From an uncultured Megasphaera sp. (lineage in GTDB: Bacteria; Bacillota; Negativicutes; Veillonellales; Megasphaeraceae): a DNA stretch of 35,704 bases. How positions within the stretch are numbered: the stretch's first letter is position 1; every line of letters begins with the position of its first letter. The notes below the pieces were generated by a model. It had not been told where the DNA came from. It did not search any database and was given only the letters and a program-made list of their open reading frames with translations. The stretch is from positions 1 through 35,704 of the forward strand of contig CALBLM010000192.1 in assembly GCA_937895695.1 (NCBI GenBank), given 5' to 3'. Positions 26,218 through 32,094 of this stretch are shown piece by piece. Position numbers and translations under genes: made by a program.

Positions 26218-27357
26218 ATGAAACGAAATCAAACACTTTATCAAGGGTATTTTATAGATAGACCGAATCGGTTTATAGCGCATGTAGAACTCGATGGCAA
26301 TATTGTTGTTTGTCATATGCCCAATCCGGGCCGTATGTGGGAATTATTATTTCCCCGTGTTCCCGTATACCTTCGCAAAGCTGAACAACCAGGCAGAAAA
26401 ACAGGATATGATATCGTAGGAATTGAACGGGATGGAATGCCTGTGTTATTAGATACACAATATAATAATGATACAGCAGCTTGGTTGGTACAGCAGCATC
26501 TGATTTCTGGTTGGGAAGATTGGAATTTGCTGCGGCGGGAAGTAACCGTAGGCGACAGCCGGTTTGACTTATTGCTTTGCCGTCAAGAAGAATTGTTTTA
26601 TGTCGAAGTAAAATCATGTACATTGTTTGGAAAAGAAGGAGCCATGTTTCCCGATGCAGTAACCGAACGAGGAAGAAAACATATTTTAGAATTAGCATCT
26701 ATGCATCAACGTGGAATTCATACAGGCGTGTTATTTTTAGTCCATTGGGACAAAGCACAATGGTTTTTACCGGACTATCATACAGATCCGGCATTTGCTA
26801 GTGCGTTTGCCGATGTGGCTCCTATGCTGGATTGGAAGGCCTTGGCAGTGCGTTGGGATGCGTCCTTTACGACACCGACGCCGGTACGATTGTTAGCATA
26901 TCCGGAAACAATTCTTCGACAAGAAAATGAAGATCGTGGCGATTATATGATTGTCATGTACCTGGAACAGGATGCAGATATAGAGATTGGTGCCTTGGGA
27001 AGCAAACATTTTCCACATGGATATTACGTATATACAGGCTCAGCTAGAAAAAATATGTCGGCACGAATTGCACGGCATCAGCGAAAACGGAAGCGCATGC
27101 ATTGGCATATCGATTATTTACGACAGCAATGCCAAGTGACAGCTGTGATTCCCATTCGAACAGCTGCTGATTTAGAGCATAACCTAGCGCAGGCTGTTGA
27201 TCGTATTGCTCCATGGCATATTCGAGGGTTTGGCTGTACGGATTGCCGTTGTGTGTCCCATCTCTTTGGATTTCATGATAATCCGATTCATTGTCGGGAT
27301 TTTATGAAACTAGTAGAAGATTTTCGCATGAATCGATTGACTGCATTGATAAAATAA
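26218..27357 (+). CDS. sfsA: SfsA nuclease fused to DUF123 (GIY-YIG/Uri) domain
   Basis: RPNRF...HMPNPGRM...SRFDLLL...EVKSCTL...FPDAVTERGRKH (SfsA), then IGALG...GYYVYTGSA...RIARH...HWHIDYL...GFGCTDCRCVSHLF (DUF123). Confidence 0.88.
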   Translation: MKRNQTLYQGYFIDRPNRFIAHVELDGNIVVCHMPNPGRMWELLFPRVPVYLRKAEQPGRKTGYDIVGIERDGMPVLLDTQYNNDTAAWLVQQHLISGWEDWNLLRREVTVGDSRFDLLLCRQEELFYVEVKSCTLFGKEGAMFPDAVTERGRKHILELASMHQRGIHTGVLFLVHWDKAQWFLPDYHTDPAFASAFADVAPMLDWKALAVRWDASFTTPTPVRLLAYPETILRQENEDRGDYMIVMYLEQDADIEIGALGSKHFPHGYYVYTGSARKNMSARIARHQRKRKRMHWHIDYLRQQCQVTAVIPIRTAADLEHNLAQAVDRIAPWHIRGFGCTDCRCVSHLFGFHDNPIHCRDFMKLVEDFRMNRLTALIK

Positions 27358-29214: not shown

Positions 29215-29242
29215 AAAAAAGCGCCACCTATACAGATGGCGC
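29215..29242 (-). terminator. Riboswitch-controlled intrinsic terminator
   Basis: Minus strand GCGCCAUCU-GUAU-AGGUGGCGC-UUUUUU. Its 5' arm CAUCUGU is complementary to ACAGAUG at the aptamer 3' end (antiterminator). Confidence 0.85.
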
Positions 29243-29276
29243 GTATATAAACGGGCAAAGAGATACTTTGCATGCT

Positions 29277-29377
29277 GCTCATCTGTCAGGTAAAAAATCC
29301 TGCTGGAATTGGCACCGTTCCTATAGGAGGTTGCCGCAGCGTCATTAGGCCAGTCCTTCAGCTGCTCTGGATGATGA
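29277..29377 (-). ncRNA. SAM-I (S-box) riboswitch aptamer
   Basis: Minus strand UCAUCCAGAGCAGCUGAAGGACUGGCCUAAUGACGCUGCGGCAACC...GGUGCCAAUUCCAGCAG...CUGACAGAUGAG follows the S-box core, including the CUGGC/GCCA pseudoknot. Confidence 0.93.
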
Positions 29378-29413
29378 AGTGTGCAGTTTAAATTATAACT
29401 TCTTTTGTAGATG

Positions 29414-29485
29414 TTATCCGTGATGCTTGCTGCACATTCGCTGGCAGCAACAACACATGATGGTCAAATTTTTTAAGTACCCCAT
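29414..29485 (-). CDS. Putative Cys-rich leader peptide MGYLKNLTIMCCCCQRMCSKHHG
   Basis: Manual translation; RBS AAGGGGT 7 nt upstream of ATG; codons ATG TGT TGT TGC TGC; lies between the promoter and the SAM-I aptamer. Confidence 0.7.
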   Translation of the reverse strand: MGYLKNLTIMCCCCQRMCSKHHG

Positions 29486-29563
29486 AGTGAAAACCCCTTG
29501 AATATATTGTGTAATCAATAAAAACATAGAAACTAAGTAAATCACATTGCAATGTTGTAATGA

Positions 29564-29592
29564 ATAGTACAGGAATTAGATGTATTTGTCAA
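29564..29592 (-). promoter_or_regulatory. SigA promoter of the leader/riboswitch/transporter transcript
   Basis: TTGACA-17 bp-TACTAT on the minus strand. Confidence 0.75.
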
Positions 29593-29777: not shown

Positions 29778-30941
29778 TTATTTTTGCAAAGCGGCTAATT
29801 GTGCTTTGAGTTCTTCATTTTCCTGCTTTAAGGACGATACGTCGTTAGCCAGTGCATTTACTTTTTGAAGCAAAGCATCGTTGGCAGCTGTCGGCGAGCT
29901 TTGTGTACTGCCGGCACCGATGCGGAAGGTGGCACCGATGTTGGCTGCTGATTTATGATTGTTGAAGGAACGGGAAGCGGCAAAGGAGAGGAGGACGTCT
30001 TTATTGGCATTATAAAAACCGCCGAGAGCTGCCGCTTTTTTGCCGTCATAGTTACCGGCAGACGCAGCCAGCTGGAATTTGGAGCCCGTGCCGTCATAAT
30101 TTAATGGATGCAGGCCGGCTAACGCTGCAGACAGGGCGCCGACATTGTCAATTTCTTGGCCTAAGGCAGCACTGGCAGTGTCTATTTTTGCATTTAAAAA
30201 TGTATCGGCAGCCGTACGTGCTGTTTGTTCCGTATACATTTGATTGCCTGTTGTCACTTCATGGGAATCAGCAGCAATACTTCCGTCTGCTACGTTAGTA
30301 AGGGTGCGATAGGTATTGGAAGTACTGTCACCAAAGGATACTTCATTAGCTTTTGTGGCGATGCTGTTGGCCCCAATAGCTACTGCATTAGCAGCAGTGG
30401 ATGTGACTTTGGAATTGGTACCGATGGCAGTACTATTATCAGCACCTTTTTCTACAGTCGCACCATATCCTAAGGCATTAGACTGAGAGGCATTGGCTGT
30501 AGTATGCGCTCCGATAGCTGTACCGGAGCCGCAGGCAAAGGCACCATAGCCAAAATCAGAACGGTTGCCGACAATAACTACTCTTGCTTTATCATAGGCT
30601 GGTTTGATGTTGCCAAAATCATAAGGTTGTTTACCTGCATTTTCAGATTTTTTAGCTTCAGCGTCTAATTTTTCCTGATCGTATGTACCATCAGCATTTT
30701 TACATTTTGAAATATCGTAGAAGGCAGCACGTGCACTAGGTCCATTGGTAATCATAACACTAGCGCCTGTTGTACCGTCCAGTTTCCCATTTACTGGGCT
30801 TGTAGCAATATTCACATTTGTGTTAGAACCAATTTCACCAGTTCCGCTATTTGTTACAGTAGCAAATACAGCTCCTCCTGCCATACTTATTGCTATACAT
30901 GTGCTTAGGATGGCTTTGCTTTTTTTTGTAATCAATTTCAT
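29778..30941 (-). CDS. Short YadA-like trimeric autotransporter adhesin
   Basis: Signal peptide; TAIG/NALG/VAIG head repeats; neck NEVSFG...RTLTNVADG...TGNQM; anchor VGALSAALAGLHPL...IGATFRIG; C-terminal coiled coil. Start moved to ATG 30941 behind AGGGGG. Confidence 0.9.
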   Translation of the reverse strand: MKLITKKSKAILSTCIAISMAGGAVFATVTNSGTGEIGSNTNVNIATSPVNGKLDGTTGASVMITNGPSARAAFYDISKCKNADGTYDQEKLDAEAKKSENAGKQPYDFGNIKPAYDKARVVIVGNRSDFGYGAFACGSGTAIGAHTTANASQSNALGYGATVEKGADNSTAIGTNSKVTSTAANAVAIGANSIATKANEVSFGDSTSNTYRTLTNVADGSIAADSHEVTTGNQMYTEQTARTAADTFLNAKIDTASAALGQEIDNVGALSAALAGLHPLNYDGTGSKFQLAASAGNYDGKKAAALGGFYNANKDVLLSFAASRSFNNHKSAANIGATFRIGAGSTQSSPTAANDALLQKVNALANDVSSLKQENEELKAQLAALQK

Positions 30942-31506
30942 TATAGATTCCCCCTGCATTTATTTTGATATTGCCTTTTATATGATTTTCATTTTCATAT
31001 AATGCGTGCATTTTGGGATACGACAACAAAACTAGAATGTATACCGGTAACGCTGCTCAATGTTGATACAATTTTTTAATGGCCTATTATAAATATGTTT
31101 GTATCAAGAGTTTGAGCACATAACAATGATAAAAACGATAATGGATATCAATAAAAATCACATTTATATTTAATCACTGCACTAAAAATTTGTCAATATA
31201 TTTTAATAATTAATTTCATATTAAAATTCATATATCATACATCATATTTACGTGAATTTTTTGATAGATTGATAGGAATATATCATACTGCATGCTATAA
31301 AATTTGAAAGCAATAGTTAAAATAAAAGAAATAAAAAACGTTATGGATATGGAAAGGATTTATAAGCAGTTGGTATCTGTATTTTTGCTGTTTTATGAGG
31401 AAATAGTACAAAAAAAGGTTGTTTTGCAATGAAATGAGTTTTCAGATTTTATTTATATGCTATAATAAGCTATATCTTTTAGATGGATATAGGGGGTACT
31501 TAAAAA

Positions 31507-32094
31507 ATGGACAGAACAGAAGCGTTACAGTTATTGCAGAAATATAATAAAGAACCGTTTCATATCATGCATGGACTTACCGTAGAAGGTGTAATGTGCT
31601 GGTATGCCAATGAATTGGGTTATGGCGACCAAGCTGCGTATTGGGGTCTTGTCGGCTTATTGCATGACGTAGATTTTGAAATGTATCCCGAACAACATTG
31701 CAAAAAAGCTCCGGAACTTTTAAAAGAAATAAATGCCAGTGATGAATTTATCCATTCTGTTGTTTGCCATGGCTATGGCATTTGCGTAGATGTTGCTCCG
31801 GAACAGGAAATGGAAAAAGTGTTGTTTGCAGCTGATGAATTAACCGGATTAATTTGGGCAGCTGCTAAGATGCGGCCGTCTAAAAGTACGAAAGATATGG
31901 AAGTTAAAAGCTTGAAGAAAAAATTTAAAGATAAAAAATTTGCTGCAGGCTGTTCCCGAGATGTCATCAAACAAGGTGCTGAAATGCTTGGATGGGATTT
32001 GAATGATTTGTTTGAAAAAACTATTTTAGCTATGCGCTCCTGTGAAGATAGCGTACGTAAAGAATGTTTGGAACTTACAGGCGTAGAAGAATAA
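31507..32094 (+). CDS. HD-superfamily (HDIG) hydrolase
   Basis: HGLTVE...GLLHDVDFE...LFAADELTG...KSLKKKFKDKKFAAGCSRD. Confidence 0.88.
   Translation: MDRTEALQLLQKYNKEPFHIMHGLTVEGVMCWYANELGYGDQAAYWGLVGLLHDVDFEMYPEQHCKKAPELLKEINASDEFIHSVVCHGYGICVDVAPEQEMEKVLFAADELTGLIWAAAKMRPSKSTKDMEVKSLKKKFKDKKFAAGCSRDVIKQGAEMLGWDLNDLFEKTILAMRSCEDSVRKECLELTGVEE

Follow-up and report, generated by a model that had tools for sequence, protein, structure and literature searches.

A cysteine-codon leader frame combined with a SAM-I riboswitch: a candidate two-input control region before a YeiH-like transporter gene of Megasphaera

In the trp and his attenuators of enteric bacteria, a short open reading frame led by a Shine-Dalgarno (SD) sequence carries a run of cognate codons, the ribosome selects one of two mutually exclusive pairings (1:2 or 2:3), and an intrinsic terminator provides the read-out. 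SAM-I or S-box riboswitches (RF00162) possess a full-length aptamer for S-adenosylmethionine (SAM) as well as an antiterminator and a terminator overlapping the 3' strand of helix P1, and they are located before sulfur-metabolism genes. Polycysteine leaderless small open reading frames (sORFs) are reported to precede cysteine-metabolism operons of mycobacteria, where stalled ribosomes remodel the mRNA and several loci form a regulon (10.1101/834739). Here, we describe a leader in which a frame with a run of cysteine (Cys) codons is followed by a SAM-I aptamer. It spans positions 29215 to 29592 on the minus strand of a contig of 35,704 nucleotides (nt) from an uncultured Megasphaera sp. (CALBLM010000192.1 of assembly GCA_937895695.1; the whole stretch is referred to as the window) and precedes the gene of a YeiH-like transporter. 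A preliminary description of the sequence had proposed that a Cys leader peptide works together with the SAM-I aptamer, and this core idea is strongly supported by comparison: the sORF is conserved, is associated with riboswitches of sulfur and cysteine genes only, has the geometry of an attenuator and survives in Acidaminococcus leaders whose aptamer has decayed.

The leader shares the SD-led frame, the cognate codons and the alternative pairings with the enteric attenuators; however, its segment 3 abuts an aptamer whose P1 serves as anti-antiterminator, and the terminator is not formed by segment 3. Furthermore, cysteine would be the sensed amino acid. The 2.0-Mb genome of the host, a Negativicute, contains 20 T-box matches, 14 of which exceed the gathering score. 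T-boxes are thus in wide use in this organism, whereas cysteine would be read by means of leader peptides. Consecutive Cys codons in unannotated sORFs upstream of cysteine genes are also described for mycobacteria, where several loci make up a regulon. There, however, the sORFs are leaderless and unmask a downstream ribosome-binding site, thus acting on translation, whereas the Megasphaera frame has an SD sequence, lies about 70 nt downstream of the predicted transcript start and is combined with an intrinsic terminator and a built-in SAM-I aptamer. In contrast to S-box leaders as they are known, the aptamer is preceded by a Cys-run sORF and a hairpin abutting P1, and the linker behind P1 is complementary to the start region of the sORF.

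Combinations of a ligand-sensing RNA with a second signal have been described. The leader of Salmonella mgtA contains a Mg2+-sensing RNA and the proline-codon sORF mgtL (PMC6460261); it resembles the Megasphaera leader in that the translation speed of the sORF selects stem-loops and two inputs are processed, but ligand, codons and phylum differ, and in Megasphaera the sORF lies upstream of the aptamer and the terminator is intrinsic. In the target leader, that is, the leader in the window, aptamer and sORF are both present and structurally linked through the hairpin P0 and the linker complementarity described below, and the two are proposed to act jointly on one decision. In the original description of the mgtA leader, mgtL reportedly lies inside the switching region and termination is Rho-dependent. 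The ubiG-mccBA operon of Clostridium acetobutylicum is controlled by a Cys T-box and an S-box-controlled antisense RNA (PMC2566862). There, charging of the cysteine transfer RNA (tRNA-Cys) and SAM signals are integrated at the RNA level on one sulfur operon, as proposed here; however, its two sensors belong to transcripts that converge, and a T-box takes the place of the ribosome in reading cysteine. Cys codons alike are found in the uORFC-8-2 motif, a predicted Cys-codon leader before cysS in Rhodobacterales (PMC8632094), and in the predicted cys leader peptides before cysteine-related genes of Actinobacteria (PMC1262725); these two cases concern other taxa and genes, and no riboswitch is involved. 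His-leader attenuators have been proposed in some Firmicutes, and Megasphaera was reported with HisR sites and not with leader peptides (PMC9413887). No description of a leader that unites a SAM-I riboswitch with a Cys leader peptide was found in the open-licence full texts of PubMed Central and bioRxiv, although the supplements of riboswitch and sORF surveys may list such leaders. Each part is of a known kind; the combination in one leader is new as far as found.

Table 1. Features of the leader and the regulated gene in the window (positions in the order of transcription)
Feature	Position	Strand	Remarks
Predicted sigma-70 promoter, TTGACA-17-TACTAT	29592-29564	-	consensus matches 10/12
Palindrome ACATTGCAATGT	29555-29544	-	directly after the -10 box, at the predicted transcript 5' end
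SD sequence of the sORF, AAGGGG	29499-29494	-	8 nt 5' of the ATG
Leader sORF MGYLKNLTIMCCCCQRMCSKHHG	29485-29414	-	23 codons + stop; 5 Cys, 3 Met
GGGGUACUU, sORF codons 2-4	29482-29474	-	complement of AAGUAUCUC in the post-P1 linker
Cys-codon run TGT TGT TGC TGC, proposed stall site	29455-29444	-	read from the sequence
Segment 2, GAAUGUGCAG	29439-29430	-	5' arm of hairpin P0; overlaps GCAGCAA 29433-29427
Fifth Cys codon of the sORF	29434-29432	-	
Segment 3, CUGCACAcUUC	29386-29376	-	3' arm of P0; abuts/overlaps the first P1 bases
SAM-I (S-box) aptamer	29377-29276	-	RF00162, 85.8 bits, E 3.7e-19, model positions 1-108
Linker, P1 3' strand to terminator	29275-29243	-	33 nt; contains AAGUAUCUC (29268-29260) and CCCGUU (29255-29250)
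Intrinsic terminator	29242-29215	-	stem 29242-29221, then T run; 9-bp stem, 6 GC pairs
Regulated gene, PF03601/YeiH-like transporter	29175-27700	-	membrane protein of 491 amino acids

The elements listed in the preliminary description (promoter, ribosome-binding site, sORF, spacer, aptamer, terminator and transporter gene) were all recovered on the minus strand, with coordinates exact to the nucleotide (Table 1). The frame is SD-led and conserved, and its four consecutive Cys codons and the additional one match the sulfur and cysteine genes that it precedes, as would be expected of an attenuator. Its stop codon is separated from the aptamer by 36 nt. The aptamer scores far above the gathering score of RF00162 (44.4 bits) over the full-length model, which places it among the SAM-I riboswitches, and it is predicted to bind SAM. 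P1 consists of five contiguous standard pairs between UCAUC (29374-29370) and GAUGA (29283-29279), and an antiterminator can form between the 5' strand of the terminator, CCAUCUG, and the 3' strand of P1, as is typical for an S-box expression platform. Within the linker, AAGUAUCUC is complementary to the start region of the sORF and CCCGUU to its SD sequence, while GCAG (29278-29275), formed by the GCA at the aptamer end and the first linker base, is the complement of segment 3 or of the Cys codons.

The two alternative pairings put forward in the preliminary description both exist. Segment 1 (UUGCUGC, 29450-29444) pairs with GCAGCAA (29433-29427), and this 1:2 hairpin is formed in the free RNA by RNAfold. 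When a ribosome footprint with the first or second Cys codon in the A site is imposed, RNAfold forms the 2:3 pairing between segment 2 and segment 3 instead, which we term hairpin P0. In the target leader, P0 has an energy of -13.1 kcal/mol and a z score of -2.46, and 1 of 100 shuffles did as well. The complementarity between the stretch behind the first Cys codon (Cys1) and the 20 nt before the aptamer is a general property of leaders with a sORF (mean z -2.59, 27 of 35 below -2), and the same test gave a mean z of -0.12 and 4 of 58 below -2 for leaders without it. The 5' arm of P0 starts 9 to 17 nt after the Cys1 codon in 31 of the 35 leaders, the outliers being found at +2, +3 and, twice, at +6; this position is independent of that of the stop codon, which lies between +9 and +36 after Cys1. 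In the target, the first P0-paired base is about 17 nt from the first Cys1 base, just beyond the footprint of a stalled ribosome. Because of this arm position, a stall on the first Cys codons would leave the 5' arm free, and a moving ribosome would have to unwind it. Such spacing is the geometry of trp-type attenuators, in which the pairings are mutually exclusive and the downstream arm lies just outside the stalled footprint, and both properties are found here. At its other end, P0 is located 0 to 14 nt from the aptamer, and 0 to 6 nt in all but six leaders.

The sequence of P0 differs between leader classes, with the arms GAAUGUGCAG and CUGCACAcUUC, AUCGUAUUGU and ACAAUACGA, GGAAUUG and CAAUUCC, or GGAGAUUG and CAAUUUCC. 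Compensating variants also occur within the class of the target, namely GUGUAC/GUACAU in the leader L053, GUGUGC.GAU/AUCGCACAC in L009 and a further one in L007. RNAalifold on ten target-class leaders returned the 1:2 hairpin only, with a U-A to C-G change in three sequences and a C.A mismatch in two; P0 pairs were left out of the count on this alignment, in which MAFFT had set the 3' arm of L009 out of register.

In the genome to which the window belongs, four of the ten SAM-I aptamers are directly preceded by an SD-led Cys sORF. Only 12 SD-preceded ATG frames of 6 to 45 amino acids with a stricter Cys motif exist in this genome, and four of them are the frames upstream of SAM-I. They share an I-[IM]-C-[CY]-like core: MGYLKNLTIMCCCC... 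in the target, MRYLKNLNIMCCTI before a cysK-like gene, MIIMCYCTERGLLA and MQIIYCMSYNMKT. Orthologues of the transporter were present in 11 of 40 other genomes searched, all of the same genus, one being merely a weak match of 24% identity. The leaders were aligned, as the preliminary description had recommended. The sORF with its Cys run is kept in 7 of the 10 orthologous loci L002 to L011 (L002-L007 and L009), and the frame of L009, MTYVKNYIMCCCSS, is shorter by one whole codon; however, the promoter directly precedes the riboswitch in L008 and L010 with no frame in the alignment, and neither frame nor aptamer was seen there in L011.

The distribution was then surveyed across the genus. Its 36 genomes with RF00162 matches contained 212 of them; 69 of these loci were fetched and combined with the 10 loci of the own genome; aptamers were placed with nhmmer and the 260 nt upstream were scanned for SD-led ATG frames with CC or CxC. 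The riboswitch-first sample, which omits loci recruited via the transporter protein, contained 81 leaders, 78 of them with at least 150 nt upstream. A search of this kind upstream of RF00162 matches had also been suggested before, and it revealed a Cys-run sORF in 21 of the 78 leaders. The sORF was found in all eight leaders before cysK-like genes and in three of five before YeiH-like genes, in contrast to 0 of 20 before metN-like genes for ATP-binding cassette (ABC) ATPases, 0 of 4 before metK and none before genes for metQ-like lipoproteins; the first downstream frame was assigned only roughly, with some 30 leaders ending up in single 'other' rows. Further genes linked to the sORF encode, according to Pfam, an SBP_bac_11 protein, two NMT1-type binding proteins, ThiS, a Prismane/hybrid-cluster family protein, a class-III aminotransferase (Aminotran_3), a P-II protein, a DUF2292 protein and a PALP enzyme. 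We take SBP_bac_11 to include sulfate- and thiosulfate-binding proteins, and the NMT1 type is presumably a family of sulfonate and taurine binders. Based on these counts and families, the Cys frame is a mark of predicted sulfur-acquisition and cysteine-synthesis genes, with methionine transport and SAM synthesis apparently left to the riboswitch alone.

Several loci show variations of this arrangement. On another contig of the same genome (C271, 7517-7985, plus strand), two SAM-I aptamers, each with a terminator, and the frame MQIIYCMSYNMKT between them precede a P-II-like gene, and in L031 two complete units of Cys frame, SAM-I and terminator stand in series before the gene of an NMT1-type binding protein. 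The control region of the same transporter differs between Megasphaera relatives (L158, L161, L163, L165 and L167), three loci having SAM-I alone and L165 and L167, for example, having neither. In a sister genus of the same family, the locus L135 contains a homologous frame without Cys codons, MRYLKNLTIIMLHTT, about 85 to 35 nt before SAM-I; its N-terminus is common with the Cys frames, and the downstream gene encodes a pyridoxal-phosphate enzyme of the Cys/Met family (MRFETDCIHGGY...). In the genus g4, seven genomes contain a single SAM-I, located upstream of metK, and lack the sORF. When the pattern TAAAA-N3-16-ATCATNTGTTG was searched in 222 genomes of the order, canonical matches were confined to the genus; matches elsewhere were chance-like, and controls with the reversed pattern were also non-zero; the pattern was discarded.

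A transporter search of genome contigs yielded 80 loci, 74 of which had at least 250 nt upstream. SAM-I precedes the transporter gene in 14 of these 74 loci, and 11 of the 14 also have a Cys frame. Cys-containing sORFs before the distant transporter orthologues L171, L196, L208, L219 and L223 were treated as chance occurrences, as none is accompanied by a riboswitch or by conservation. Three orthologues from Acidaminococcus, whose transporters are 78 to 80% identical to that of the target, have retained both strands of P1, both arms of P0, the terminator, the palindrome and a frame preceded by an SD sequence. Their frames have a different N-terminus and the core MCCCC(Q/C)RMCS, which corresponds to MCCCCQRMCS in the target. 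The aptamer is intact in L222 (79.8 bits), whereas that of A. fermentans (L164) is degenerate, scores 29.6 bits, which is below the gathering score, and lacks the AGAG of J1/2; in L166, the Cys frame is present and an aptamer was not found at an E value of 0.1. Since frame, P0, P1 strands and terminator persist where the aptamer has decayed (two of three), the frame can remain coupled to the platform of P1, antiterminator and terminator after a probable loss of SAM sensing. In A. fermentans, nine contiguous base pairs (bp) can form between segment 3 and the part of the linker that immediately follows P1 (z -3.72, 0 of 300 shuffles), and the other two leaders reach z scores of -1.83 and -2.04. 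The start region pairs with the linker in Acidaminococcus by means of other sequences (UCAUGGAG with CUCCGUGA, AUCAUGGG with CCCAUGGU; z -2.73 to -3.46). The leaders L164 and L166 may represent a riboswitch that is turning into a plain leader-peptide attenuator.

The pairing between the SD/start/Cys region of the sORF and the linker behind P1 is not restricted to Acidaminococcus. Of the 31 leaders with a sORF, 16 have a z score below -2 for this pairing, compared with 1 of 46 leaders without it. In the target, the energy is -21.3 versus -12.6 for the null (z -2.95, p 0.01), and z scores of -3.5 to -4.65 were obtained for L002 to L006 despite different linkers, of -1.76 for L007 and of 0.03 for L009. 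The linker partner differs among the orthologues (AAGUGCCUC, AAGUACCUC, AAGUACCUU), and the pairing is retained. This pairing was not seen in the preliminary description, which had instead suggested that the short P1 is extended by CUGC:GCAG, using segment 3. The extension does appear in the minimum-energy fold of the full target leader and is strongest in A. fermentans, where the aptamer has decayed; however, the linkers of L002 and L004 to L006 lack GCAG, although their transporters are 94 to 99% identical to that of the target. As a Megasphaera-wide feature, the extension was rejected (mean z 0.10, 0 of 31 below -2, target 0.24). The pairing of the start and Cys region with the linker is thus the better supported candidate for a buttress of P1. 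As segment 3 lies outside the terminator and at most extends P1, the classical arrangement in which segments 3 and 4 form the terminator is not found.

The sORF is predicted to be a real leader-peptide gene by its frame, its context and its conservation. The N-terminal context of the Cys run takes at least six different forms, each with an SD sequence and an ATG in frame with the run, namely the long and short forms of Megasphaera, L009, L031, the sister genus (MESITKIICC) and Acidaminococcus (MGILNMCCCCC, MENR[FY].FVCMCCCC). The SD-like motif before every sORF of the family and the CC or CxC in 35 of 35 were built into the scan criteria; the SD-like motif is also present in the Acidaminococcus forms. 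TGT and TGC alternate at the Cys codons among orthologues. Across the family, the sORF encodes 9 to 26 residues with unrelated C-termini, only I-[IM]-C-C being common to all, and it is always located in the leader, 22 to 58 nt before the aptamer. The string GGGGTACTTAAAAA constitutes codons 2 to 5 of the long-form frames and the spacer between SD and start in the short forms, and GGGGGTACTTAAAAA / GGGGGTACTTAAAAAATG is the start region of an ordinary gene at 31488-31515 on the plus strand; for these two reasons, the long-form frames may also start at an inner TTG. The bases of the sORF are apparently also constrained as RNA.

Taken together, these data led us to propose that the sORF measures charged tRNA-Cys and shares the platform of P1, antiterminator and terminator with the SAM-I aptamer, an account that we consider somewhat more probable than not. 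When cysteine is ample, the ribosome would pass the Cys codons and segment 2, reach the stop codon and leave. The freed 5' part of the leader (SD, start and Cys codons) would then pair with the linker just 3' of P1 and, where the sequence permits, segment 3 would pair with the first linker bases. These pairings would lengthen the short P1 of 5 bp and keep its 3' strand from the antiterminator, resulting in termination at a level set by SAM. When cysteine is scarce, the ribosome would stall with one of the codons Cys1 to Cys3 in the A site and cover the 5' part of the leader; segment 2, just beyond the footprint, would pair with segment 3 to form P0, and P1, deprived of its buttresses, would lose more often to the antiterminator, thereby allowing transcription of the transporter gene. 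The same design before sulfur-acquisition and cysteine-synthesis genes across Megasphaera would amount to a cysteine regulon layered on the S-box regulon. With regard to the logic of the gate, low cysteine or low SAM may suffice, as the preliminary description proposed, AND logic being a possible alternative.

A number of observations weigh against this account. With respect to translation, variable sites at the three codon positions number 3, 4 and 5 in the long forms and 0, 2 and 2 in the short forms, so that there is no third-position excess; because this substitution pattern is uninformative, the coding case rests on frame and context. In L028, the leader of cysK in a close relative, the long-form frame has an in-frame TAA at codon 4, while a downstream TTG/ATG and the Cys codons are intact; the TAA could be a sequencing error, the sign of a decaying leader or a hint at the use of an inner start. 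With respect to transcription, the transcript would start near 29557, upstream of the sORF, as predicted from the promoter, whose hexamers are kept in the orthologous leaders of the alignment; the region as a whole shows no excess of promoter-like sites (7 versus 7.0 expected). A metatranscriptome contig of 163 nt spans 29381-29543; it extends from just before P1 to a point 14 nt downstream of the predicted start, and weakly hints at a transcript start that precedes the frame, although such libraries can contain DNA and contigs show neither transcript ends nor levels. Three of the four public runs compared are probably DNA and all data are contigs; uncovered parts carry no meaning. With respect to structure, the linker complementarity is close to zero in L009, L026, L025, L068, both units of L031, L038, L111 and the cysK leaders of the C121 type, and the failure of the segment 3:linker pairing in Megasphaera likewise counts against a part of the model. 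Moreover, the leaders are mutually related, so that the counts given above overstate independence.

For energy modelling, transcripts were folded up to the terminator loop as the decision point, and ensembles with P1 forced were compared with those in which the antiterminator was forced. When the stretch from the SD sequence to 14 nt after Cys1 was masked, as by a stalled and a queued ribosome, 19 of 31 leaders shifted by more than 0.5 kcal/mol toward the antiterminator and one more by +0.5, including all eight target-class leaders (+0.6 to +4.8 kcal/mol); five of the 31 shifted in the opposite direction. When the masked part was shuffled 30 times for comparison, 11 of the 19 classes of leaders ranked in the top five of 30, and the remaining 8 showed no masking effect beyond the shuffles. 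Several of the figures run counter to the proposal: the shift of +1.4 kcal/mol in the target was equalled by 4 of 30 shuffles, and the probability of the antiterminator in the ligand-free target ensemble was 0.76 in the free and 0.79 in the stalled state, which is no difference. With a single ribosome, the target shifted by +1.9 upon a stall at Cys1, but L002 and L004 to L006 by -1.7 to -2.8 and L007 by -0.3 to -1.0, and a ribosome at the stop codon shifted the target by +3.3, more than the Cys1 stall. Global minimum-energy folds with ribosome masks were discarded as a discriminator because aptamer and terminator win in every masked state. Thus, the energy figures support the proposed direction weakly.

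The small energy effects in the target, the similar antiterminator probabilities and the classes without a masking effect are what would be expected if sORF and aptamer were two independent modules in series, with the sORF acting by another route such as ribosome-polymerase coupling, mRNA stability or shielding of the leader, and with AND logic. We consider this unlikely, since neither a terminator nor a U tract lies between sORF and aptamer in the target sequence, P0 always lies close to the aptamer, the sORF region complements the linker in about half of the sORF leaders and hardly ever in the controls, and the sORF of A. fermentans persists with the P1/terminator platform after decay of the aptamer. 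It is less likely again that the switch of the preliminary description, in which pairing with segment 2 and extension of P1 are the two alternatives for segment 3, constitutes the whole mechanism. The extension in the full-leader fold of the target and the 9-bp version of A. fermentans, along with the lower values of the other two Acidaminococcus leaders, speak for such a switch; the linkers without GCAG in close orthologues and the Megasphaera-wide z scores, to which the target is no exception, argue against it.

An untranslated RNA or DNA element, for example a long-range closing helix or a protein-binding site in which the Cys codons are incidental, would account for the high nucleotide conservation at all three codon positions, for the pairing of the 5' part with the linker and even for GGGGGTACTTAAAAA, which also serves as an ordinary translation start region elsewhere in the window. 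It would leave unexplained, however, why SD and in-frame ATG go along with the Cys run in unrelated N-terminal contexts up to Acidaminococcus and the sister genus, why an orthologue differs by an indel of a whole codon, why the element is linked to cysteine and sulfur genes only, and why the position of P0 fits the ribosome footprint; we rate it as quite improbable. Least credible, and hardly to be expected at all, is a functional Cys-rich micropeptide that is merely co-transcribed, be it metal-binding or the precursor of a modified peptide. The five Cys among the 23 residues of the target and the core shared with Acidaminococcus would suit such a peptide, but the variable length, the unrelated C-termini around the short common part and the constant location of the sORF in the leader would not, and the common QRMCS codons double as the 5' arm of P0.

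If the joint action of Cys frame and aptamer on P1 is confirmed, a ribosome-based amino-acid sensor and a metabolite aptamer converge on one helix, and two-input logic within a single leader becomes directly testable. The proposal would also explain the split of the S-box regulon into methionine genes under SAM-I alone and sulfur-uptake and cysteine-synthesis genes under SAM-I plus a Cys leader. The variants seen in Acidaminococcus point to a common platform on which a riboswitch can take the place of a leader-peptide attenuator, or the reverse. In its broadest form, Megasphaera and Acidaminococcus would possess a cysteine 'ribulon' grafted on S-boxes, in which ribosome and SAM act on the same P1 as a two-input gate separating sulfur and cysteine genes from methionine genes, and the Acidaminococcus leaders would be intermediates toward a pure attenuator that reuses the platform; this wider scenario is tentative, its chances being a little short of even.

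The transporter itself is a distant member of PF03601 (67 bits, E 1.5e-18, Pfam) and scores 26.1 bits against TIGR00698, far under the cut-off of 232.6. In the genome-contig search, orthologues were found in Acidaminococcus, Selenomonas, Desulfosporosinus and others, and they are common in sulfate- and sulfite-reducing Firmicutes and Deltaproteobacteria. YeiH has been linked to sulfite resistance in Salmonella in a recent preprint (10.1101/2025.07.27.662810). Because its leader is predicted to be under cysteine and SAM control, the YeiH-like transporter, about which little is known, is likely to have a role in sulfur supply.

The palindrome ACATTGCAATGT at the predicted transcript 5' end is kept in the transporter leaders of Megasphaera and Acidaminococcus as well as in the sORF leaders L026 and L031; it could serve as an operator for a repressor or form a hairpin at the 5' end. 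The string CATTGCAATG has four copies in the genome, of which only the leader copy was read as intergenic when flanking sequence was judged by eye and without calling of open reading frames. The leader and the transporter gene are flanked by a gene for a YadA-like protein of 393 amino acids with weak matches to head repeats and a membrane anchor (29778-30959, minus strand) and by a gene for a protein of 379 amino acids in which SfsA (N-terminal OB and RE domains) is fused to DUF123 (26218-27357, plus strand).

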